The position numbers and the translations under genes are program-made. A DNA stretch of 62,549 nt, the filler included, from Stramenopiles sp. TOSAG23-3 (lineage: Eukaryota), in assembly GCA_900128585.1 (NCBI GenBank). It is 9 parts of 9 records of this genome, joined end to end, with 100 filler letters (N's around TTAATTAATTAA, not from the genome) between each part and the next. Parts side by side here need not be neighbours in the genome. Positions count along the whole stretch, not along the records: positions 25,496 to 33,882 come from LT643026.1; 8 more parts are not named here. One strand, written 5' to 3'. Of the stretch, positions 8,402-61,023 are shown in pieces; position 1 is the first letter of the stretch, and each line of letters starts with the position of its first letter. The notes below the pieces were generated by a model that saw only the letters and a list, made by a program, of their open reading frames with translations, did not search any database and was not told the origin of the DNA.

Positions 8402-8501
8402 NNNNNNNNNNNNNNNNNNNNNNNNNNNNNNNNNNNNNNNNNNNNTTAATTAATTAANNNNNNNNNNNNNNNNNNNNNNNNNNNNNNNNNNNNNNNNNNN
8501 N
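8402..8501. other. Artificial contig linker
   Basis: 44N-TTAATTAATTAA-44N, stops in all six frames. Confidence 0.99.
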
Positions 8502-12487: not shown

Positions 12488-13770
12488 ATGAAGCTTTCCA
12501 CGCTCGTCGTCCTTGCCGGTGCCTTACTGGCGTCTACTAGTGAGACCTTCGCTATCACGGAGCAAGAACAGGTCGATCAGTTCTATAAGGAAAAATATGG
12601 CGTAGTTACCAGACGCCTCGAAGTTGGTTCTGACACACCTCGAGTCCGCCGTCGGCTTGCTGCCGGCGCGTTTACCTCGTTGTTGGGCGCCATAGACGGC
12701 GTTTCGAGTACTGTGCAAGGGGTAACCAGTGCAGTCCAAGGAGTTGTAAATCTCTTCGGAAAAAAGTCCTCAGAGTCCATTGTCAATTCTTTGACAAACC
12801 GTGGCTTCAATGAGTTTTCTGCAAAAACGAAGGTTATGATTACCTCTATGCACACTAGCGTGTTTGATAGCTACGTGAAAGACCAGATCAGACTGTTGAA
12901 GATCCCTAGCAAACACAACCAACAGGTCAACAGTCTTCTGAAGAAGGCTACGTCTGTCTACAAGCAGGAGTGGATAAACATTGACACTACCTTCGATGAG
13001 AAGTCGGGGGGCTACGCCAGAAACTTCCAATTGATGACGTACCGTGATCATAACTGCGAAACTATGCACATGGTTATTGTTGAGCCGAACATCAAGTACA
13101 AGTTGAAAGAAGACTTGTTCATAATATCAAAATCGAAATCGTCGATGGGAGGAGCATTTAGTAAAACTAAACTTGACTTCAAGAGCGGAAAGATGCCGAA
13201 ATCCTTGGATGTTGATACTCTGAAATTCGTCAATGAGTATTTCCAAACCATGGCCCTCGCCAAATTGGCCGAGTCCAGAAGAATTGTCCAGACCGAATCT
13301 TACACCGAGCCGTGTTTGAAAAACTGGCAACCGCCCCCAAAGCAAATCTGTCCATGGTGCGATGAAATGGACGAGGACGACGAAGAAGCCGGTGGCTTCA
13401 GCGCCGAAGCTGGGTGGGAGGAAGGCGGGAAATATGCCAAAGTCAAGTGGGAGCAGGACGAAATGGACGCCGAAGAGGNNNNNNNNNNNNNNNNNNNNNN
13501 NNNNNNNNNNNNNNNNNNAAAGTCAAGTGGGAGCAGGACGAAATGGACGCCGAAGAGGACGACGAAGAAGCCGGTGGCTTTAGCGCCGAAGCTGGGTACG
13601 AGGAAGGCGGGAAATATGCCAAAGTCAAGTGGGAGGAGGACGAAATGGACGACGAAGAAGCCGGTGGCTTGAGCAGGAAATGGACGACGCCGTGCCTGGA
13701 CCGATGCAAGACTGGAGATCGATGGTGTCGGATGCGTTGTCATAACCCTATAACAACACAACGCCTGTAA
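12488..13770 (+). CDS. Secreted protein with repeated acidic-spacer/peptide C-terminus (spans a 40-N gap)
   Basis: Signal peptide MKLSTLVVLAGALLASTSETFA; the repeat DEMDAEEDDEEAGGFSAEAG(W/Y)EEGGKYAKVKWE continues after the gap in the frame of ORF 13414..13770, ending at TAA 13768-13770. Confidence 0.8.
13361..13668 (+). repeat. About 102-bp (34-aa) coding tandem repeat, at least 2 copies, interrupted by a gap
   Basis: Near-identical units either side of N 13479-13518; the 40 nt before and after the gap are identical. Confidence 0.9.
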
Positions 13771-16898: not shown

Positions 16899-16998
16899 NN
16901 NNNNNNNNNNNNNNNNNNNNNNNNNNNNNNNNNNNNNNNNNNTTAATTAATTAANNNNNNNNNNNNNNNNNNNNNNNNNNNNNNNNNNNNNNNNNNNN
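16899..16998. other. Artificial contig linker
   Basis: 44N-TTAATTAATTAA-44N. Confidence 0.99.
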
Positions 16999-25395: not shown

Positions 25396-25495
25396 NNNNN
25401 NNNNNNNNNNNNNNNNNNNNNNNNNNNNNNNNNNNNNNNTTAATTAATTAANNNNNNNNNNNNNNNNNNNNNNNNNNNNNNNNNNNNNNNNNNNN
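25396..25495. other. Artificial contig linker
   Basis: 44N-TTAATTAATTAA-44N. Confidence 0.99.
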
Positions 25496-25679
25496 GATGA
25501 CACACAGTGTTTTACACTAGTTGGTATTTAAATGAATTCCAATGAATACTGAAATGCCACAACCAGTTTTAATTAATGCATAGATACATATTTATTACAG
25601 GAAGAAAACATATTGGATCAATCATCGTATGTATTGTCGAACAGAGTAAAAGTAAAAAAAACACTGTTATCGCCTACCC

Positions 25680-27677
25680 ATGGCAAGCCTGTCCAGTACC
25701 AGCAAACAGAACGTCTCCTCGCTCCTTGTGGGGGCCGCGATAGGCTCGGCCGTGTCACTGGGGGCTACGTACATGTACGAAGCGTACCGTCGAAAGGCGG
25801 GGGAGGGTGGCGAGAAAGAGAAAATAGGCCCGCCGGCGGCGGACATTAGGTACCCGTTGAAGCTGGTCGGAAACGTGGACCGTTTGTACGACGACGGCGG
25901 CCCGAAGCCGTTCTGTTTCAACAAAGAAGTCGTCGAAGTGTTCGACGACATGGTGTCGCGAAGCGTGCCGCTCTACAGCGAGGCCATCGACTTTCTGCTC
26001 TACGTCGTCGCGCGGTATTACAAGCCCGGGACCAACGTGTACGACCTTGGGTGCAGCACAGGGACCACGTTGGACTCTATCGCGCGGTCCATCCCCAAAG
26101 AAGAGTACAAGCTAAACCTGGTCGGCATCGACGAGGCGGTCCATATGATTGCAGAGTGCCGCCGTAAATTGAAGTGGGCAGAGAGGCACCACACGGTCGA
26201 CATTAGGCTCGGCAACATATGCACGGCGCCGGTGGAGAACTCGTCCGTGTGTATCCTGAACTACACACTTCAATTCGTGAAGTGGGCCGGCCGGGACCCG
26301 TTGCTGCAGAAAATATACGACGGGCTGTGCCAGGACGGGATCTTGTTCATTTCGGAAAAGGTCGCCAGCTCCGACGACGACATGCAGGGCACGTGCGTCT
26401 GGGCCTACGAGGACTTCAAGCACAGGCGCGGGTACTCCAAAGAGTACATTGCAAGGAAGAAGGCGGCCCTGACGAACGTCCTCGTCCCTTACACCGAAAA
26501 GCAACTCTGCGACGCCCTGTACGTTGCCGGGTTCGACCACGTCCAGACCTGTGTAAAATGGAACTGCTTCGTGTCCATCATCGCACGAAAGCGGGGGGTC
26601 CCGGCCGTCCGCCAGGTAGTCCAGACGCCCACGTTCGACAGCTTCTACGAGGCGAACCCGCTGTACTTGAAGAGCCTCTCGGAGGGCGCAGCCAAGAACT
26701 TCGACGCGTTGTGCCACGAGCGCCGAAAACAGTTTTACGGGAAAGGGAAGCTTAGCGCCCGCACGCTGAGGGAGTACGAGGGCATTGCAGAGAAGATTTT
26801 GACCGTTGGAAAATGCATTCAGACGACGGGGTCGAAGCCGGCCGTGGATTTGATCGTTGACTCGGGAACGATCAGAATAGGGGACGAGGGCGACTTAACG
26901 GCGGAAGGGCGGAGGGTTTGGGAAGAGTGCGCGGTCGCCCTGAAGCCGTGGCGAAAGGGGCCGTGGAAAATATTTGGCGTCGACATCGACGCGGAGTGGA
27001 GGTCGGACATGAAGTGGGAGCGGATCCTGCCGCGCGCGCCGAGTTTGAAAGGGAAGGTTGTGTGCGACCTCGGGTGCGGGAACGGGTACTTTATGTACCG
27101 CATGTTGGACCAGAAACCAAAGTGCGTCGTAGGGTTGGACCCAAACTTTCACGCATGGCTGGAGTTCCAAATGTTTCAACATTTTACGCAGGACCAGGCT
27201 AGGGAAACCCTAAAGTTTGAGATGCTGCGAGGGGAGAACATGGACCTGTTTCCAAAGACGTTTGACGTCGTGTTTTGCTTGGGGGTACTGTACCACACGC
27301 CAGACCCGGTAGGGATGCTGCGCAAAATTCGGGACAGTTTGACGAGGAAGGGCGTGATTGTCGTGGACTGCGAAGGGATCCCAGGGGAAGATCACGTCGC
27401 CCTGTTCCCCAAGAAGAAGTACACGAACATGAAGGGGGTGTACTTCCTGCCGACCGAGCCAACGCTTGTGCACTGGCTCCGTCGAAGCGGCTTCAATGAC
27501 ATCAACGTGTTTTACTCGGAGCCCCTTTCGCCGGCCGAACAACGGGTTACGGAGTGGGCCCCCATCCGGGGAAGTTTAGAGGAAAGCTTCGATAAAAACT
27601 TCGAATCCCTGACCATAGAGGGGTACCCTAGACCGCTGAGAATGTACCTGCGGGCCACAAGAGGGGGCAGTGCGTGA
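25680..27677 (+). CDS. cmoA-cmoB: Fused carboxy-SAM synthase (CmoA) and tRNA U34 carboxymethyltransferase (CmoB) with N-terminal hydrophobic segment
   Basis: CmoA motifs F..EV.EVFDDMVSRSVPLY, VYDLGCSTG, LNYTLQF, ILFISEK, FK..RGYS; CmoB motifs PWRKGP, IDAEWRSDMKWER, DLGCGNGY, LGVLYH, EQRVTEW, TIEGYPRPLR; one uninterrupted 665-aa ORF. Confidence 0.92.
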   Translation: MASLSSTSKQNVSSLLVGAAIGSAVSLGATYMYEAYRRKAGEGGEKEKIGPPAADIRYPLKLVGNVDRLYDDGGPKPFCFNKEVVEVFDDMVSRSVPLYSEAIDFLLYVVARYYKPGTNVYDLGCSTGTTLDSIARSIPKEEYKLNLVGIDEAVHMIAECRRKLKWAERHHTVDIRLGNICTAPVENSSVCILNYTLQFVKWAGRDPLLQKIYDGLCQDGILFISEKVASSDDDMQGTCVWAYEDFKHRRGYSKEYIARKKAALTNVLVPYTEKQLCDALYVAGFDHVQTCVKWNCFVSIIARKRGVPAVRQVVQTPTFDSFYEANPLYLKSLSEGAAKNFDALCHERRKQFYGKGKLSARTLREYEGIAEKILTVGKCIQTTGSKPAVDLIVDSGTIRIGDEGDLTAEGRRVWEECAVALKPWRKGPWKIFGVDIDAEWRSDMKWERILPRAPSLKGKVVCDLGCGNGYFMYRMLDQKPKCVVGLDPNFHAWLEFQMFQHFTQDQARETLKFEMLRGENMDLFPKTFDVVFCLGVLYHTPDPVGMLRKIRDSLTRKGVIVVDCEGIPGEDHVALFPKKKYTNMKGVYFLPTEPTLVHWLRRSGFNDINVFYSEPLSPAEQRVTEWAPIRGSLEESFDKNFESLTIEGYPRPLRMYLRATRGGSA

Positions 27678-27812
27678 GTGAGGGTGTGGGAAAGCTTCAG
27701 TGAGTAGACGCTATCGTACGAAGTAGATTATATGTTATTTACGGGGTATTTCTAAAACGTGCGTTCGTACCTATATTTACCCCCCGCGTCGTATTAAGAA
27801 TTGTTGTTCTTG

Positions 27813-28592
27813 TCAAGACGGCAACGGCTTGCCGGCGCACGCTGTTTTCTGCAGCCTTGCGATTTGTACTTCGGGTTTTGAATTGCTTTTCCACACTATT
27901 TCTGCTTCAAAACCGTAACGTTGGATCTTTTCGGAAAAGAATGTGCCCTCAAAAGCATGCAGCCGTATTTGGAACGCTATGTACACGATGGATTCGGCGG
28001 TGGTCAGCTTCTCCAACGTTTCGAGCAGGATTTCATGCGCCGCTTCGAAGTAAATGACATCTGCAGCAACTATCAAATCAAAACGTTCTGCGTTTGTCAG
28101 GCGGGAAACAGACCGTAAGTCGTCGTCGTTTCCCCACCGCAGCCTGGCACAGAGCGGCCTGCAGCTTTCTGGTCTGTGGTTCCGCCCACTCCACTGTGAA
28201 AAATTCTGCCAGTTGTCTCTCGCATTCCCATCGGCGAGCTTCAGAACGTCTTCGTCCCCGTCGGTAGCAACCGTGTTTATTCCCATTTCTCCCAGAATCA
28301 GGGAACTAAGAGGCGCACCGCCGCAGCCAATTTCCAGCGCTCGCTTGCACTTGATTGCCCCCTCTCTCCCCTCTAAATTGGCCAGGTATTGCCCCAAATA
28401 TATGCCAGACTGCCACACCACTTTCCCCACGTTTTCAATGTCTTCGCCCTGTTGAAATTTGTACAAACATGGCCCACCCCGAGGGAAAACTACAACTACT
28501 TCCCTCGTTTTCTGCAGGGTTGGGATGACCACAGACAGTATCCCTCTTGAAAGCGTGGGATGGACAATGATCTGCGTACACTCCTCCGACAT
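27813..28592 (-). CDS. Protein-lysine methyltransferase, METTL21/Methyltransf_16 family
   Basis: GKVVWQSGIYLGQYL, ALEIGCG, VATD, LRWG, FDLIVAADVIY; first ATG at 28592 (track start is GTG). Confidence 0.88.
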   Translation of the reverse strand: MSEECTQIIVHPTLSRGILSVVIPTLQKTREVVVVFPRGGPCLYKFQQGEDIENVGKVVWQSGIYLGQYLANLEGREGAIKCKRALEIGCGGAPLSSLILGEMGINTVATDGDEDVLKLADGNARDNWQNFSQWSGRNHRPESCRPLCARLRWGNDDDLRSVSRLTNAERFDLIVAADVIYFEAAHEILLETLEKLTTAESIVYIAFQIRLHAFEGTFFSEKIQRYGFEAEIVWKSNSKPEVQIARLQKTACAGKPLPS

Positions 28593-29228
28593 GATACAGG
28601 TACCGTACTCGTACTGCGTATCTAGCGACACAGAATTGAACTACGCGAACAAACAGAAAGAGCGATTTTTTGAAACTTAGTTCATAAAAAGATGCGAATC
28701 GACACTATAATCTTGATTATATCATTTGATGACAGTCTATCATCTACTGGTAATATTTCATCAATAATACAAAGAAAGAAACTCTAAAGAAACTCTACTA
28801 CTATTATTTCAAACTAATAATAATAATAATAAAAAACAAAAAAAAAAAACAACAACAACAACGAACCACAACAACAACAACAACTCGCTTCTCTCCGTCT
28901 TCTCCTCTTCCTATCCTCCTCCTCCTCTTCATTTCTCTTCTCTTCTTCTTCTTCTTCTATCTTCTTACTTTTTTCTTAATATAATAATATTATCTAATAA
29001 TATCTCACATCATAAATAATAATAATATGATTGTTTGATGATGATGATGTGGAAGAAAAATGATGAGATGCACTACATCAATCTGTGTTTTATCTCTTCT
29101 TGTAGTCATTTAAAGTTGTCTTCCTGATTGTGACTCGTTTGTTGGGGAAAGAATACTAAACGTCGAAATCGAAGGCGCGATCATCGCTTTTGTGCGAAGA
29201 TTGGTGTTACGGTGTATACAGATAAACA

Positions 29229-29966
29229 ATGGCAGATTTTGCGTCCACTCAGCTCAAGCTCTCGCAAGCCACGGCGGACTCTCTCACAATAACTTGGTCG
29301 GAAATTGATGGTGCGGAAATGTATAAAGTAGAGATGGCCAAGGCTGGCGAAAGTCCTGAGAAATGGACAGTCCTGTCGGACTCGCTCATAGGGGCTGCGG
29401 TTAAAAAGAAGAATTTATCCCCTGCCACGGGGTACAAATTTCGTGTGTCTGGAAGAAACCAGGACAACACTTTTGTTTCGGAGTACAGCGAGTCTCCAGT
29501 GCTACGAACCAAAGCGGGCGTCCACAACTGTTTCCGGGGCATGCTTGGAAATTCTGTCACCAATGCCGCAGGGAAAACCATTGATCTGAACATTTTAGGC
29601 GATGGGCTGATAGGATTGTATTTTAGTGCATCTTGGTGCCCGCCGTGTCGAAAGTTTACGCCAATGCTTGCCAAGTTTTATCAGGAAGTCAAGGCGGCTG
29701 GGAAGCAGTTTGAAATTGTGTTTGTGTCAGCAGACCGCGACAAGGGCTCGTTTGACACTTACCTGAAAAGCCACCATCCATGGTGGGCAATCCCCTTTGA
29801 TGCTCCGAACCGCCAAAACACATCCGCGTACTTCAAGGTGAATGGAATACCGCGGTTGATTATTTTTGCCCCCGGGGGTAACATTGTAAACGGGAACGCC
29901 GTAGGCCCGCCGCTGACGCTGAATGCTTTCTCACAATGGCAGGCTCAAGCGGGGATTAGCCTGTGA
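29229..29966 (+). CDS. Fibronectin type III plus nucleoredoxin/tryparedoxin-like thioredoxin
   Basis: FN3: SLTITW..Y.V..W..NLSPATGYKFRVSGRN; Trx: GLYFSASWCPPCRKFTP.L..FEIVFVSADR..VNGIPRLI. Confidence 0.9.
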   Translation: MADFASTQLKLSQATADSLTITWSEIDGAEMYKVEMAKAGESPEKWTVLSDSLIGAAVKKKNLSPATGYKFRVSGRNQDNTFVSEYSESPVLRTKAGVHNCFRGMLGNSVTNAAGKTIDLNILGDGLIGLYFSASWCPPCRKFTPMLAKFYQEVKAAGKQFEIVFVSADRDKGSFDTYLKSHHPWWAIPFDAPNRQNTSAYFKVNGIPRLIIFAPGGNIVNGNAVGPPLTLNAFSQWQAQAGISL

Positions 29967-30248
29967 ACGGTTTAACAAAAAATACGACAGTACTAAGTAC
30001 GCCAAAGCATTTTTTGTTTTTTGAAACAATATTTGTAATATATGCATATGTTGTATATAATTTGTTTTTTTTTATGTATATGTTGTTTTTTAATATTTAA
30101 AACCGAGAGAGGGAGAGCACGAGGGATCCCCACCCCCTTTTTGTGAAAAAACTGAGACGTGGCGCAAGTATCATACGATATCTTACCAATAATAGGGAAC
30201 AGCCCTCTTGCCCCGCATCAGATGTCGCTAGCACGGCGGCTGGGCTAA

Positions 30249-32493
30249 TCATATTTGGGCCTCGAGCTTCGCCGACAGCTCTTCCTCCTCTGCCAAATGG
30301 CTACGGAACCGCTTCAGGTTCTTTTGAAGGTCTGTGTACATTTTGATCTTCCGCTCTAAGATCCCGTCCAAGCGCTCGGCGTAAATATCGATGTCATAGT
30401 CTACCACGTCCTCCCCTTGAACTTTGGCCAGCAGGTTTCCCTCCTCTGTCAAAAGCTGCGCGTTCTCCTGTATCGTTTCCATGTGGGCTTGCAGGAGGTT
30501 CTCTTCTTCCTCGACAAGCTGACTGATCGCCTCATGCAAGTGCTCAAGTTGCGTTGAAGACTCCCCCTCGCCCTGGGCCCGCAAGGAACGGTGAAGCAAG
30601 TGAAGGTCTTCTCGGTCCGGTTTCGGGGTCTTGGGGTCAGCCCTTTTCCCGCCGGCGTCCCGGGAACGTGGGGGGCGGCTCGGCGAGTTGTTCTCCCGGT
30701 CTCGTGGGGTTTTCGGGGCCGCCGACCGCCCCCCGCTCTTGCGCGCGTTGATCTTTCGGTTTCGCGCGCCCCCGGAGACGGGCTGCCTTGCGTTTCGGTT
30801 GTTTGCCCCGGCGCGCAATGGCTCCTTCGCGTTCCGCTTCCCGCGCCCCGGGGAGGCCGTCGGAACGTTCCGTCGCCCCGGGCGCTCCGGGGTGTGTTGC
30901 ATTTTGGACCCCGCGGACGGCGCCGGGGGCGACTGCCGCGGGATGGCCACGCGGCGGCCCAGCTTTCCGTTCTTGTGGGCCGCATCCCGCCCCCCCGCGC
31001 TTTATCAAATCATCCTTGATTTTTGCCTTCTCCGCCTCAGATATCTTCCCCTCCTTGGAGAGCTCGTTCGCTTTCTGTAGTTTTCGCCCCATCGGGCTGA
31101 GGGGCACCGAGAAGAGGTCTTCCCCCGCGACCGTGTCCCCGGACTCGTCCAGGGAGCTGTCGGGGGAGCTGGGGAGCTGGAAGGAAGCCTCCTTGCCCTC
31201 GTCGTCTTCCTCCTTCCGGTTCGGCTGGACGGTCCCTTCGAAGTAATGGACGATCTTCTTCTGCTTGATGCGGTTGGCGTAACGAAGCGTGTTCAGCGTG
31301 TGCTCGGAGGAGGACGCCGTGGGGGCGATGTTGCAGATCATGACGGTCTTGCTCGAGGGGGCGAACGAGTCCTTCAGGACCAGGGTCAGTTTGCTCGCCC
31401 GGTACGGCACGTGCCCGCGCTGGGCGCTGCTGAAGGCCCGAATGCACTCTTTCAGTGCGAGAAGGCTCTTGTTGATCTCCGCGCCCTCGACGCGGCGCTG
31501 CCGGTTGTGGTTCTTCGTGTCCTGGGCCCGCTCGCTCCCGGCCAGGTCGATCAGGGAGAACCGGCCTTCCCCGCGCCGATCGGGGAAGCGGATGGTGATG
31601 CGGCAGATGGCGTGGGAGCGCGAGGAGGCGGAGTTCATCTCCGTGGCATGGGTCGCGCGGCTCGCGTTCCCGCGCTCGATGCAGTCCAGGAGCTCGGAGC
31701 GCGAGGAGACCGATGCCTCGTTCATGCCGCCGACGACCACGTTGCCCTTCCCGTCCTCGCGGATGGTCAGCCGCTTCCGCCCGTTCAGCAGGTCGATGCA
31801 GCGGCCGCCGTAGATTTCAAAAAAGCTGCATTTGATCTTGACGTCGCCGGCGCGCTCTTCCTGGTCCAGGAGCCTGAAGATCTCGGCGGCGGCCCGGTTC
31901 TGCATGCTGACCATCGTGTACGTCTTTCCGCTCCCGGTCTGGCCGTACGCAAAGACGGTGGCGTTGCCCCCGTTGGAAAAGACTTGCTTGACGAGGGGCT
32001 GGGTGGTGGCCTTGTAGACGACGTCGTTGTCCTCGGTCTCGTCGAAGACGTGGTCGAAGCTGAACTCGGTGTTGTCCAGATACTTGGTGATCCCGCACAC
32101 CTTCTTCTTCGAGTTGTGAATGATGACGAGGGGGTTCAGCCCGGTCACGGTGTCCCAGTCCCGGTTCCGCGTCTCCCTCGGGATGGCGGGGCGCTTCCGA
32201 ACGCAGACCTTCATTCGCTCCTCCGTGACCCGGTGGGAGCGTTTCTTAATCTTGCAGTCCCGACGAAACTTTTCGATCATACGCTGGAAGTCCACGTCTC
32301 CGGGCTCCCCCTGCTGCTCGAACCGCCGCTCGTCCGCCGCCCGGGCCCGCTTGTACTCGCCCGCGGACTTTCGCCGGTTCTCCCGCTTCAGCCGCAGCTC
32401 CTCAATGGCCTGGATGGTTGTTTTCTTCCGCGCGCCCCCCTTTCCCGGAGTATACGTTTCGACCGGTTTCCCTCCCTTCGCAAGTGGCCACAT
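30249..32493 (-). CDS. Kinesin-13 (KIF2/KIF24-like) with apparent 1-nt frameshift at a G7 run (30990-30996)
   Basis: VCVRKRP, FAYGQTGSGKTYTM, FFEIYGG, NSASSRSHA, DLAGSER, HVPYRASKLT; the kinesin-13-type tail (EEEENLLQAH..DYDID.Y..RL..IL) is in a second frame and joins if G7 is read as G6. Confidence 0.9.
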
Positions 32494-33007
32494 GGTGCGT
32501 GTAAGTTCAAAGTTGCGTGTGTTACAAAGAGAGAGAAGAAAGCAAAAAAAAAAAAAGGAACAACAATTGGCGCAAGGAACTATATTGAAAAGAATAAAAA
32601 AAAAACATTTAGGAAAAAAAACGAAGAATCTCTCTTTCTCGTTCGTTGGTTCAGTATAGGTACCAATCCATCCCTTTCCCTTATTACAACTATTGCCTCG
32701 AATAGACCAGACGACCAGAAGACCTTTTCCCTGCCCTACCTTGCCGACCGACCTCTATTAAATAATATATCTATAGCAGGTGATTAGCTCCTTCTCTTTC
32801 TTCAAGTCTTTTTTCTTTTTTCTTCTTCTTCTTTTTCTTTTATTATTTTAATTAAAAAATAGTAGGAGATGATCATCGATGAAACAACTTTTGAATAATT
32901 GAGAGAATTTAATTTAAATACTACTACACAGTATGAGTAAATATCATTATTAAATATACGTACTAAATAATATTAATAATAACGACATTGATTTCAAGTG
33001 AGATGGA

Positions 33008-33063
33008 GAAAGAAAGAAGAAAGAAAGAAAGAAAAGAAAGGCAAAAAAGAAAGAAAGAAAGAA

Positions 33064-33099
<36 letters not shown>

Positions 33100-33137
33100 A
33101 GGAAAGAAAGAAAGAAAGAAAGAAAAGAAAGGCAAAA

Positions 33138-33173
<36 letters not shown>

Positions 33174-33190
33174 CAGAAAGAAAGAAAGAA
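33008..33190. repeat. (GAAA)n microsatellite
   Basis: Long imperfect GAAA run. Confidence 0.95.
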
Positions 33191-33799
33191 CGAAAGTAAA
33201 GTGCTTCGATTGATTGATTGATTGATTGAGATTAGTTTATATAGCCTATAATAATAATAAATACAATGTAATACAGTACAATCAATGGATGAAAAATAGA
33301 AATAATAAAAAATATGCTGAATCGAGAGAAACGTTTTATTTAATTAATTTAATTGAAGCCGAAGAAGAAGAAGTAAAGTGATCGATCGATCGATGATCGA
33401 TGATCGATGATCCAATATTAGATGCTAATTATTACTACTTATACGTACTGGACTTCGTACTACTTGCTATGCTTTGTATTTATTATTTTGGAAATAGAAT
33501 GAAAGACTATATACATAGAAAGGTAGGAAGGAAGGAAGGAAGGAAGGAGAAGAGAAAGAATACTATATATATAAGCTTAGGAATTTTTAGGAAAGACTAG
33601 TCTTTATTTTTCAATTATGATACTATATTTATATATATATAATAATACAGATAATTTAAGATGTCCTTAATTTTATTGATAGAAAATTGATTTCGTAACT
33701 GCCACTACTTAAATAGAGTCTAGACACTACGATTATATATAGTTATAATGCATGGAATTGTACTACACTGTACGAGGAGCAATTAGTTTCAATACTCTC

Positions 33800-33882
33800 C
33801 TTCTCTTCTTCTTCTTCTTCTTCTTCTTCTTCTTCTTCTTCTTCTTCTTCTTCTTCTTTCTTCTTCTTCTTCTTTCTTCTTC
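33800..33882. repeat. (CTT)n microsatellite at contig end
   Basis: CTT run up to the linker. Confidence 0.95.
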
Positions 33883-33982
33883 NNNNNNNNNNNNNNNNNN
33901 NNNNNNNNNNNNNNNNNNNNNNNNNNTTAATTAATTAANNNNNNNNNNNNNNNNNNNNNNNNNNNNNNNNNNNNNNNNNNNN
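33883..33982. other. Artificial contig linker
   Basis: 44N-TTAATTAATTAA-44N. Confidence 0.99.
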
Positions 33983-42364: not shown

Positions 42365-42464
42365 NNNNNNNNNNNNNNNNNNNNNNNNNNNNNNNNNNNN
42401 NNNNNNNNTTAATTAATTAANNNNNNNNNNNNNNNNNNNNNNNNNNNNNNNNNNNNNNNNNNNN
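42365..42464. other. Artificial contig linker
   Basis: 44N-TTAATTAATTAA-44N. Confidence 0.99.
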
Positions 42465-50836: not shown

Positions 50837-50936
50837 NNNNNNNNNNNNNNNNNNNNNNNNNNNNNNNNNNNNNNNNNNNNTTAATTAATTAANNNNNNNN
50901 NNNNNNNNNNNNNNNNNNNNNNNNNNNNNNNNNNNN
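50837..50936. other. Artificial contig linker
   Basis: 44N-TTAATTAATTAA-44N. Confidence 0.99.
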
Positions 50937-59296: not shown

Positions 59297-59396
59297 NNNN
59301 NNNNNNNNNNNNNNNNNNNNNNNNNNNNNNNNNNNNNNNNTTAATTAATTAANNNNNNNNNNNNNNNNNNNNNNNNNNNNNNNNNNNNNNNNNNNN
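59297..59396. other. Artificial contig linker
   Basis: 44N-TTAATTAATTAA-44N. Confidence 0.99.
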
Positions 59397-60923: not shown

Positions 60924-61023
60924 NNNNNNNNNNNNNNNNNNNNNNNNNNNNNNNNNNNNNNNNNNNNTTAATTAATTAANNNNNNNNNNNNNNNNNNNNN
61001 NNNNNNNNNNNNNNNNNNNNNNN
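60924..61023. other. Artificial contig linker
   Basis: 44N-TTAATTAATTAA-44N. Confidence 0.99.

Follow-up and report, generated by a model that had tools for sequence, protein, structure and literature searches.

The 62,549-nucleotide stretch of DNA analysed here (the window), which joins contigs of Stramenopiles sp. TOSAG23-3 (assembly GCA_900128585.1), carries a gene in which the bacterial tRNA-modification enzymes CmoA and CmoB are joined in a single polypeptide. The gene is intact and belongs to both enzyme families, keeps their cofactor residues and their folds, lies in a eukaryotic setting, groups with its fused homologues in a single clade and preserves the bacterial gene order. By sequence and by fold, the two halves of its product fit the definitions of CmoA, the synthase of carboxy-S-adenosyl-methionine (carboxy-SAM or Cx-SAM), and of CmoB, the carboxymethyltransferase that uses this cofactor. 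What is new is the presence of a known chemistry in a new host domain and the anchor-linker-fusion architecture that accompanies it. On balance we favour the reading that the protein is a membrane-tethered bifunctional CmoA-CmoB enzyme, derived from a joined bacterial operon, that forms uridine 5-oxyacetic acid (cmo5U).

Carboxy-SAM, reportedly defined by Kim et al. in Nature in 2013, and cmo5U are regarded as bacterial features, and a conserved protist gene makes 5-hydroxyuridine-derived modifications (xo5U) directly testable in eukaryotes. CmoA homologues have been stated to occur in bacteria only (Byrne et al. 2013, PMC3663124), and in the accessible text of Sakai et al. (2019, PMC6599085) the possibility of eukaryotic xo5U was raised from the distribution of the hydroxylase TrhO alone. 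As the first-pass annotation of this DNA had assumed, no report of cmo5U in eukaryotes was found in the literature searched. No paper on a eukaryotic CmoA/CmoB fusion was found in the full-text literature either, where supplements (Supplementary Data 2 of Sakai et al. 2019) or the 2013 Nature paper might mention eukaryotic homologues. The annotation had made the novelty of the fusion conditional on the lack of an earlier description; this holds for the literature searched, whereas public databases already contain the sequences under automatic names, GFH58728.1 among them.

The start of the fusion open reading frame (ORF) is well defined, because in-frame TAA codons stand just 5' of it, at 25647 and 25653 (33 and 27 bases before the ATG), and the intact ORF of 665 amino acids (aa) called earlier is thereby confirmed. 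Its parts are listed below, with confidence in the structural model given as the predicted local distance difference test (pLDDT).

25680..27677, plus strand: coding sequence of the CmoA-CmoB fusion, 665 aa, ATG start, intact, no intron needed.
25713..25769, plus strand: N-terminal hydrophobic segment, putative membrane anchor (aa 12-30), followed by the basic flank YMYEAYRRK.
25809..25883, plus strand: flexible linker (about aa 44-68), with pLDDT 62-76 in blocks 41-60 and without secondary structure.
25908..26591, plus strand: CmoA (carboxy-SAM synthase) domain (aa 77-304, TIGR00740).
26628..26867, plus strand: CmoB-specific N-terminal helical domain (about aa 317-396; helices at 317-378 in the model).
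26868..27662, plus strand: Rossmann-fold carboxymethyltransferase core of CmoB (aa 397-661).
Within the CmoB core: motifs PWRKGP (aa 423-428), GVLYH (aa 535-539) and GYPRPLR (aa 648-654), aligning with E. coli K91, Y200 and R315.

The CmoA half passes the NCBIfam equivalog model TIGR00740 with 204.9 bits against a cut-off of 193.3 over aa 77-304, in keeping with the CmoA-like domain placed earlier at about aa 75-305. Pfam assigns generic methyltransferase domains to two stretches of the fusion protein, in addition to PF08003, and a sequence search of solved structures returns the CmoA entries 4gek (139.9 bits), 4iwn and 1im8. Residues were compared through an alignment with E. coli CmoA and CmoB from NC_000913 and with homologues. 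The CmoA cofactor contacts Y39, D62, G64, S66, D89, N132 and F137, together with E164, are retained both by the window protein and by 52-53 of the 53 fused proteins; the roles of the contact residues and the conservation of E164 follow PMC3663124.

Some features of this half weigh against the bifunctional reading. A second CmoA model, NF011995/PRK15451, is not passed (151 bits against a cut-off of 285). Arg199, which forms a salt bridge to the cofactor carboxylate and has been termed the key carboxylate-binding residue (PMC3663124), is replaced by Lys in the window protein, as it is in 52 of the 53 fused proteins, and two adenine/ribose contacts of the window protein differ as well (N90 to E and D117 to N). 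These differences would favour a protein in which only the CmoB half works, converting 5-hydroxyuridine (ho5U) to 5-methoxyuridine (mo5U) with S-adenosyl-methionine (SAM), and in which the CmoA half is a decayed passenger; the excerpts of PMC4482062 used here describe CmoB as methylating ho5U with SAM at a low rate, in vitro as well as in vivo. We consider this explanation very improbable. Lysine at position 199, which keeps the charge, also occupies this site in all but one of the 115 stand-alone bacterial CmoAs that are nearest (114 of 115, named CmoA by NCBI); it therefore looks like the usual state in this part of the family and not like decay, and positions 90 and 117 are likewise variable among the 115. 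The CmoA core residues are kept although members of the fused clade fall to about 41-45% identity, a sign that the CmoA half has been under selection. In addition, CmoB K91, the residue that enforces the preference for Cx-SAM, is retained in all 53 fused proteins.

The CmoB half passes both available equivalog models, NF011650 with 295.8 bits against a cut-off of 209 (aa 397-661) and TIGR00452 with 284.3 bits against 275, and matches PF08003 with 262.7 bits over aa 397-660; the earlier placement of a CmoB-like domain at about aa 400-660 thus agrees closely with the models. Searching with CmoA and CmoB models had been proposed as a check on the fusion, and of those applied TIGR00740, NF011650 and TIGR00452 exceed their cut-offs while NF011995 stays below. 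Among solved structures, the CmoB entries 4p7c, 7ct8 and 4qnu are matched by sequence. The CmoB models match only from profile position 48-62 onward, so the first CmoB helices are divergent in sequence.

According to the parts of PMC4482062 consulted, CmoB binds the S-carboxymethyl group of the cofactor through K91, Y200 and R315 and has K110 and G130 at its amino-acid moiety, loss of K91 switches the enzyme from Cx-SAM to SAM, and the N-terminal domain of about 100 residues is substrate-specific. The equivalents of all five residues are kept in the window protein, as are the three carboxylate-binding motifs that had been noticed on first inspection. K91, K110, G130 and Y200 are retained in 53/53 fused proteins, and R315 is kept in 28/28 fused proteins with a complete C-terminus and in 107/107 stand-alone CmoBs.

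An AlphaFold2 model of the fusion protein, built on 75 aligned sequences, has a mean pLDDT of 91.8 and a predicted template modelling score (pTM) of 0.81. Foldseek comparison of the model with the CmoA structures 4gek, 4iwn and 1im8 gives template modelling scores (TMt) of 0.92-0.94, with root-mean-square deviations of 2.0-2.1 and 35-36% identity. The CmoB structures are matched with TMt 0.82-0.86 over 335-348 alignment columns on chains of 320-329 residues, a span that takes in the CmoB-specific N-terminal domain. Both the CmoA fold, with its Rossmann core and lid helices, and the CmoB fold are therefore present in the predicted structure of the fusion.

The first-pass annotation had recognized the CmoA-CmoB fusion, its eukaryotic setting and its probable operon origin, all of which are supported, and had overlooked an N-terminal anchor and an acidic linker that precede the catalytic domains. 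In the window protein, the hydrophobic stretch of 19 aa has a mean Kyte-Doolittle value of 1.61, and the AlphaFold model shows one long helix over aa 12-43 followed by an unstructured stretch. The linker ends in a conserved GPP..D.RY.L.L.G..D.LY that leads into CmoA. Full-length fused homologues share this plan throughout: they start with some 12 polar residues, a hydrophobic stretch that often ends in a small residue and Tyr, and a few basic residues, followed by a variable, often strongly acidic linker and a conserved LGP...Y.L.L.G..D.IY running into CmoA. We surveyed the anchor in the 53 proteins of at least 560 aa among the first 64 matches (11 shorter ones were dropped), defining it as a 19-residue window N-terminal of CmoA with a mean Kyte-Doolittle value of at least 1.3. 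Such a window was found in 48/53 proteins, with a median start at residue 12. The C-terminal flank (next 12 residues) is net positive in 41 of these 48, the N-terminal side has a median net charge of 0, and the linkers are 44-158 residues long with a median net charge of -2. Among the five proteins without an anchor window, P0004 is borderline (1.26), and P0026, P0052, P0054 and P0059 have N-termini that seem incomplete or different.

The positive-inside rule links flanking charge to membrane topology, and moderate hydrophobicity combined with a basic C-terminal flank is typical of signal-anchored proteins of the mitochondrial outer membrane. The pattern suggests that the hydrophobic segment is a signal-anchor that leaves the enzyme on the cytosolic side and a short N-terminus on the other side of the membrane; most likely, the hydrophobic helix and the acidic linker would tether the enzyme to an organelle or to the endoplasmic reticulum (ER) membrane with its catalytic domains cytosolic. 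Two points count on the other side of the balance: this topology is called from hydropathy and flanking charge alone, and a membrane anchor is odd for a tRNA-modifying enzyme.

The same segment could instead be the cleaved signal peptide of a bipartite plastid-targeting sequence, or another import signal, in which case an enzyme with the same cmo5U function would work inside the plastid or the mitochondrion on tRNAs encoded there. Organellar tRNAs and ribosomes are bacterial in type, and filamentous cyanobacteria have close cmoA-cmoB pairs, with CmoBs 46-49% identical. Many homologues also show a small-residue-Tyr end such as ..SLATY.. that may be a cleavage site, and diatom plastid signals favour an aromatic residue after the cleavage site. 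We nevertheless judge organelle import rather unlikely, since the hydrophobic stretch, at least some 19 residues long, leads into basic residues, and since the variable, net-acidic linker (P0041, for example, has runs of E and D) does not resemble a transit peptide; the acidity of the linker therefore argues against a plastid transit peptide. The phylogenetic evidence, given further below, also speaks against a plastid origin.

Fusions of this kind are widespread in marine protists. A word-indexed search yielded 74 matches of 365-1164 aa among 8000 candidates scored, and about 50 fused homologues come from marine protists; the survey of protist genomes and transcriptomes suggested by the first reading thus recovers the fusion repeatedly, Chaetoceros diatoms included. 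The nearest relative, P0002, is 68% identical over 99% of the length, and Chaetoceros homologues are about 50% identical. Among the holders are Chaetoceros tenuissimus, where GFH58728.1 (automatically named 'tRNA (mo5U34)-methyltransferase') lies on a 2.45-Mb scaffold, and Chaetoceros curvisetus, and several transcripts of the Marine Microbial Eukaryote Transcriptome Sequencing Project (MMETSP) that are marked complete encode fused homologues. Fragments covering CmoB only come from Chaetoceros sp. UNC1202 and the dictyochophyte Pteridomonas danica. One EukProt entry, P0022 (573 aa), from the set of the ichthyosporean Pirum gemmata, is fused and anchored and clusters closely with the MMETSP transcript P0007, so that it may represent a true holozoan copy or, alternatively, material carried over from a different protist. 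An exhaustive HMMER search of 1.84 billion cluster representatives returned 4583 proteins at E ≤0.001, in which the fused family amounts to a few clusters at 50% identity (P0001, P0023, P0026, P0033 and P0054, plus partial ones). A Protein Atlas search returned bacterial CmoB clusters only, and a search with the CmoB alignment gave 72 pattern matches in viral contigs, none of them a relative.

The fusion gene genuinely belongs to the nuclear genome of a marine protist. The window chains contigs of slowly falling length, in a size-sorted pattern, through artificial joints of the form N44-TTAATTAATTAA-N44, and claims of linkage across any of these spacers are therefore void; a single scaffold gap of 40 N lies at 13479-13518. 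Linkage can be read within the contig that carries the fusion gene, as follows.

25496..33882, strand not applicable: contig carrying the fusion gene (8387 bp), bounded by artificial spacers at 25396-25495 and 33883-33982.
27813..28631, minus strand: Methyltransf_16 lysine methyltransferase, METTL21-like (PF10294, 61.7 bits), on the same contig as the fusion.
29229..29966, plus strand: nucleoredoxin-like gene with fn3 and Thioredoxin_8 domains (PF13905, 97.4 bits; PF00041, 31.5 bits), on the same contig.
30637..32493, minus strand: kinesin motor protein (PF00225, 315.1 bits), on the same contig as the fusion.
8402-8501, 16899-16998, 25396-25495, 33883-33982, 42365-42464, 50837-50936, 59297-59396 and 60924-61023: spacers, each of the N44-TTAATTAATTAA-N44 form.

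The contiguity of the fusion with the kinesin, lysine methyltransferase and nucleoredoxin-like genes, as first proposed, holds within 25496-33882. Base composition is in accord: the fusion gene has a GC content at third codon positions (GC3) of 0.78 overall, even along its length (N-terminus, CmoA, linker and CmoB at 0.76, 0.83, 0.81 and 0.74), and the kinesin gene one of 0.84, and the AT-rich flanks remarked on earlier are evident in an intergenic GC of 0.29-0.47 against 0.51-0.65 in coding sequence. The nucleoredoxin-like product carries its fibronectin type III domain N-terminally and a WCPPC motif in Thioredoxin_8. A CLC channel, a Kelch protein, an ammonium transporter, Mnd1, Sir2, TPR/MLP1 and other genes belong to the same assembly and are unlinked to the fusion. 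No tRNA genes (ARAGORN) and no Rfam families at the gathering threshold were found in the window (1-62549).

Bacterial contamination or a chimeric assembly join might be invoked, since the fusion gene lies only 184 bases from one contig end and the window is an artificial chain of contigs. We consider this extremely improbable. Three eukaryotic genes of matching composition share the contig, and none of the 80 best bacterial loci is fused. An orthologue 67% identical to the window protein, the sole locus from a metagenome scan, sits in the middle of an independent 26-kb metagenome contig (L082), with genes on both sides; among these are Gpi16 of the GPI-transamidase, a subunit of the V-type ATPase, an EF-hand protein and a TRP-like channel. 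Synteny with the window contig is lacking, but the setting is equally eukaryotic. The eukaryote-style anchor is shared by 48 of the 53 fused homologues, and the 2.45-Mb scaffold of C. tenuissimus is among the holders of the gene. The stretch occurs in 20 of the 24 public runs listed, which come from 13 studies and are all of marine or seawater origin. The gene is apparently expressed, judging from word shares of 0.70 and 0.51 of the sampled words in two metatranscriptome runs of one sample; the RNA runs X17-X20, two polyA libraries among them, had word shares below 0.5 and were not counted as evidence.

The bacterial relatives of the two halves are normally separate, neighbouring genes. The nearest stand-alone CmoBs include those of Oligoflexus, Oligoflexales, Desulfobulbus, Bdellovibrionales, Planctomycetota and Arcobacteraceae, and the nearest stand-alone CmoAs those of Oligoflexales, Anaerolineae, Planctomycetota, many filamentous cyanobacteria, Myxococcales and Bdellovibrionota. 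When one genome of each prokaryotic species was scanned, at least 584 relatives emerged among the 600 pattern matches listed, and operon structure was assessed in the best 80 of these at least 584 loci by seeking a cmoA-like ORF within 4 kb. Such an ORF was present in 62/80 loci and lay upstream on the same strand in 61/62; the ORFs of cmoA and cmoB, as called, overlap by four bases in 11 of the best 80 loci, and no single ORF matched both halves in any of the 80. The expectation that cmoA and cmoB are normally separate and adjacent in bacteria is borne out by these counts. The domain order of the fusion is that of the operon, because cmoA lies upstream of cmoB in bacteria, and the loss of one stop codon or a small change of frame would be enough to join the two genes.

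Phylogenies of the separate halves, which had been suggested as a check, each place the fused proteins in one group. In the CmoB-only FastTree phylogeny the group holds 28 fused proteins and 3 fragments from short contigs (support 100), and in the CmoA-only tree 52 fused proteins and 1 fragment (support 93). The CmoA-only tree is a polytomy, with the stand-alone CmoAs P0233, P0234 and P0333 near the base (support 83). We also built a concatenated CmoA+CmoB tree with IQ-TREE under LG+C20 with posterior mean site frequencies (PMSF), by a quick search with support from the Shimodaira-Hasegawa-like approximate likelihood ratio test (SH-aLRT) only, on 53 rows and 563 columns. The rows comprise 19 of the 28 full-length fused proteins, E. 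coli as outgroup and, chosen for taxonomic spread, 33 of the 62 paired bacterial loci. The 19 fused proteins all fall into a single clade (SH-aLRT 100), and Oligoflexia, cyanobacteria, Chloroflexota and Myxococcota are found in its sister group (support 84). The fused clade and its sister have a support of 100, with SAR324, Desulfobulbia, Planctomycetota, Bdellovibrio and E. coli outside.

An exclusive clade of fused proteins and cyanobacteria, as a plastid origin would predict, was rejected by the approximately unbiased (AU) test (p = 1.9e-8, difference in log-likelihood 84.5); the grouping was specified after the first tree, and the hypothesis itself was prior. This rejection counts against import into the plastid, the cyanobacteria nesting with Chloroflexota and Myxococcota. 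The cyanobacterial pairs concerned are those of filamentous genera (Lyngbya, Trichodesmium, Okeania, Arthrospira and others; loci L002-L026 and L078), which nest with sequences of Chloroflexota, Anaerolineae and Myxococcota (L015, L016, L024). Because they are nested in this way, the cyanobacterial operons may themselves be acquired, and the distribution suggests that the cmoAB operon spread horizontally among bacteria.

A donor among the Oligoflexales was also considered. In the CmoB-only tree P0119 (Oligoflexales, locus L027), together with P0123 and P0139, is sister to the fused clade with a support of 96; in the concatenated tree L027 is placed elsewhere, and the candidate was dropped. We name no donor, because the placement of P0119/L027 differs between the two trees. 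The data fit the acquisition of a single bacterial cmoA-cmoB operon followed by its fusion, because the fused clade is single and nested among bacterial operon pairs, and the origin from an acquired and then fused operon put forward in the first-pass annotation is thus supported. The gene is a clear example of how an operon from bacteria can become one gene in a eukaryote.

In the mechanism that we propose for the tethered bifunctional enzyme, the CmoA half would convert SAM and prephenate to carboxy-SAM, and the CmoB half would move the carboxymethyl group onto ho5U at tRNA position 34, yielding cmo5U. In E. coli, Cx-SAM is present at about 0.5 uM and SAM at about 200 uM, a difference of about 400-fold, according to the available text of PMC4482062. 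This scarcity therefore provides a rationale for joining producer to user: the covalent fusion would keep the scarce Cx-SAM beside its only user, and direct hand-over between the two domains may bring a benefit. Supply of ho5U by a TrhO-type hydroxylase is plausible, by analogy with the published distribution of TrhO, stramenopiles included; in the sections of Sakai et al. (2019, PMC6599085) drawn on here, trhO homologues are reported as widespread in eukaryotes and xo5U-type modifications are proposed there. Extending the proposal, we entertain as a tentative possibility that protists, diatoms included, carry cmo5U wobble uridines, installed on nuclear-encoded tRNAs by the cytosol-facing tethered fusion, possibly at the surface of an organelle.

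The fusion could also make Cx-SAM and carboxymethylate a target that is not tRNA: a peptide, a small molecule, a membrane lipid head group, or another RNA or DNA, for example. Precedents exist: as far as the part of PMC10491745 consulted describes them, TglE/TglF carboxymethylate a peptide thiol in the 3-thiaglutamate pathway and MccS acts in microcin C synthesis, and a phage CmoA supplies a DNA cytosine carboxymethyltransferase (PMC12783734). The conserved membrane anchor is unusual for a tRNA modifier, and cmo5U is unreported in the eukaryotes examined; in the portions of the reports available, cmo5U was undetected in Arabidopsis, Populus, yeast and calf liver (PMC2956550) and xo5U was not found in Chlamydomonas chloroplasts (PMC8877259). 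Against a non-tRNA target stand the passing of both CmoB equivalog cut-offs, the presence of the CmoB-specific N-terminal domain in the model, and the nesting of the fused clade among ordinary cmoA-cmoB pairs of many phyla. We therefore regard such a target as improbable, and tRNA remains the acceptor in the reading we favour.

Comparison with known systems places the fusion closest in kind to CmoA/CmoB of E. coli (yecO/yecP), with which it shares the domain order of the operon, the equivalog cut-offs, the cofactor residues and the fold (TMt 0.82-0.94). Unlike that system, the protist fusion is one polypeptide with an N-terminal anchor and an acidic linker, is nuclear-encoded and has CmoA R199 replaced by K. 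Its nearest bacterial relatives are pairs of the Oligoflexia/cyanobacteria type, 43-50% identical per half, and the E. coli type is more distant. Fusions of TrhO with TrmR, described for Phytophthora and Phaeodactylum in the accessible text of Sakai et al. (2019, PMC6599085), resemble it as another bacterial xo5U-pathway pair that forms one fused stramenopile gene, and they suggest that xo5U chemistry occurs in eukaryotes; compared by published description, they differ in combining a hydroxylase with a SAM methyltransferase, the expected product being mo5U and not cmo5U. TglE/TglF and the phage CmoA/CmoX pair resemble it in coupling a CmoA-type Cx-SAM synthase with a carboxymethyltransferase, but their acceptors are a peptide thiol or a DNA cytosine, they are separate, unanchored proteins, and CmoX is a homologue of C5-cytosine methyltransferases, not of CmoB.

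If the favoured reading is true, ecologically dominant marine protists would contain a eukaryotic source of the rare metabolite Cx-SAM. If the more tentative possibility of cmo5U on nuclear-encoded tRNAs also holds, theirs would be the first xo5U modification shown in eukaryotes, with an altered reading of four-codon boxes. The combination of fusion and anchor also constitutes a natural experiment in which the synthase of a cofactor is coupled to the one enzyme that consumes it.

Other proteins that contain CmoA or CmoB in fused form were recovered alongside the protist family. P0353, a CmoA-CmoB fusion of 562 aa with a high-GC type of composition, is found on 6 contigs, the longest of 58 kb, and is bacterial-looking, its origin being read from composition alone. 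Like the protist fusion, it has CmoA followed by CmoB in one polypeptide and contains PWRKGP, GVLYH and GYPAP.R; it scores 287.9 bits with TIGR00452 and 153.3 bits with TIGR00740, below the cut-off of 193.3. Unlike the protist fusion, it is without the N-terminal hydrophobic segment, is 36% identical, and branches far from the eukaryotic clade, at the tip of a very long branch. Because it lies so far from that clade, CmoA-CmoB fusion probably arose at least twice.

A divergent CmoA-CmoB-like fusion, P0358 (622 aa, Lys/Asn-rich, 31% identical, on a 12.8 kb contig), has PWKQCS in place of PWRKGP and GILHR in place of GVLYH, so that by eye the K91 and Y200 positions seem changed and recognition of Cx-SAM may be lost. 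P0074 (693 aa, on a 76.8 kb contig) joins a CmoA domain (TIGR00740 193.7 bits, just at the cut-off) to a RecD/TraA-like superfamily 1 (SF1) helicase and, by analogy with phage CmoA/CmoX, may represent a DNA-directed use of Cx-SAM. Finally, P0073 (660 aa) combines a methyltransferase resembling the CmoB half with PF02784, an ornithine/diaminopimelate/arginine (Orn/DAP/Arg) decarboxylase domain, according to a precomputed Pfam list.

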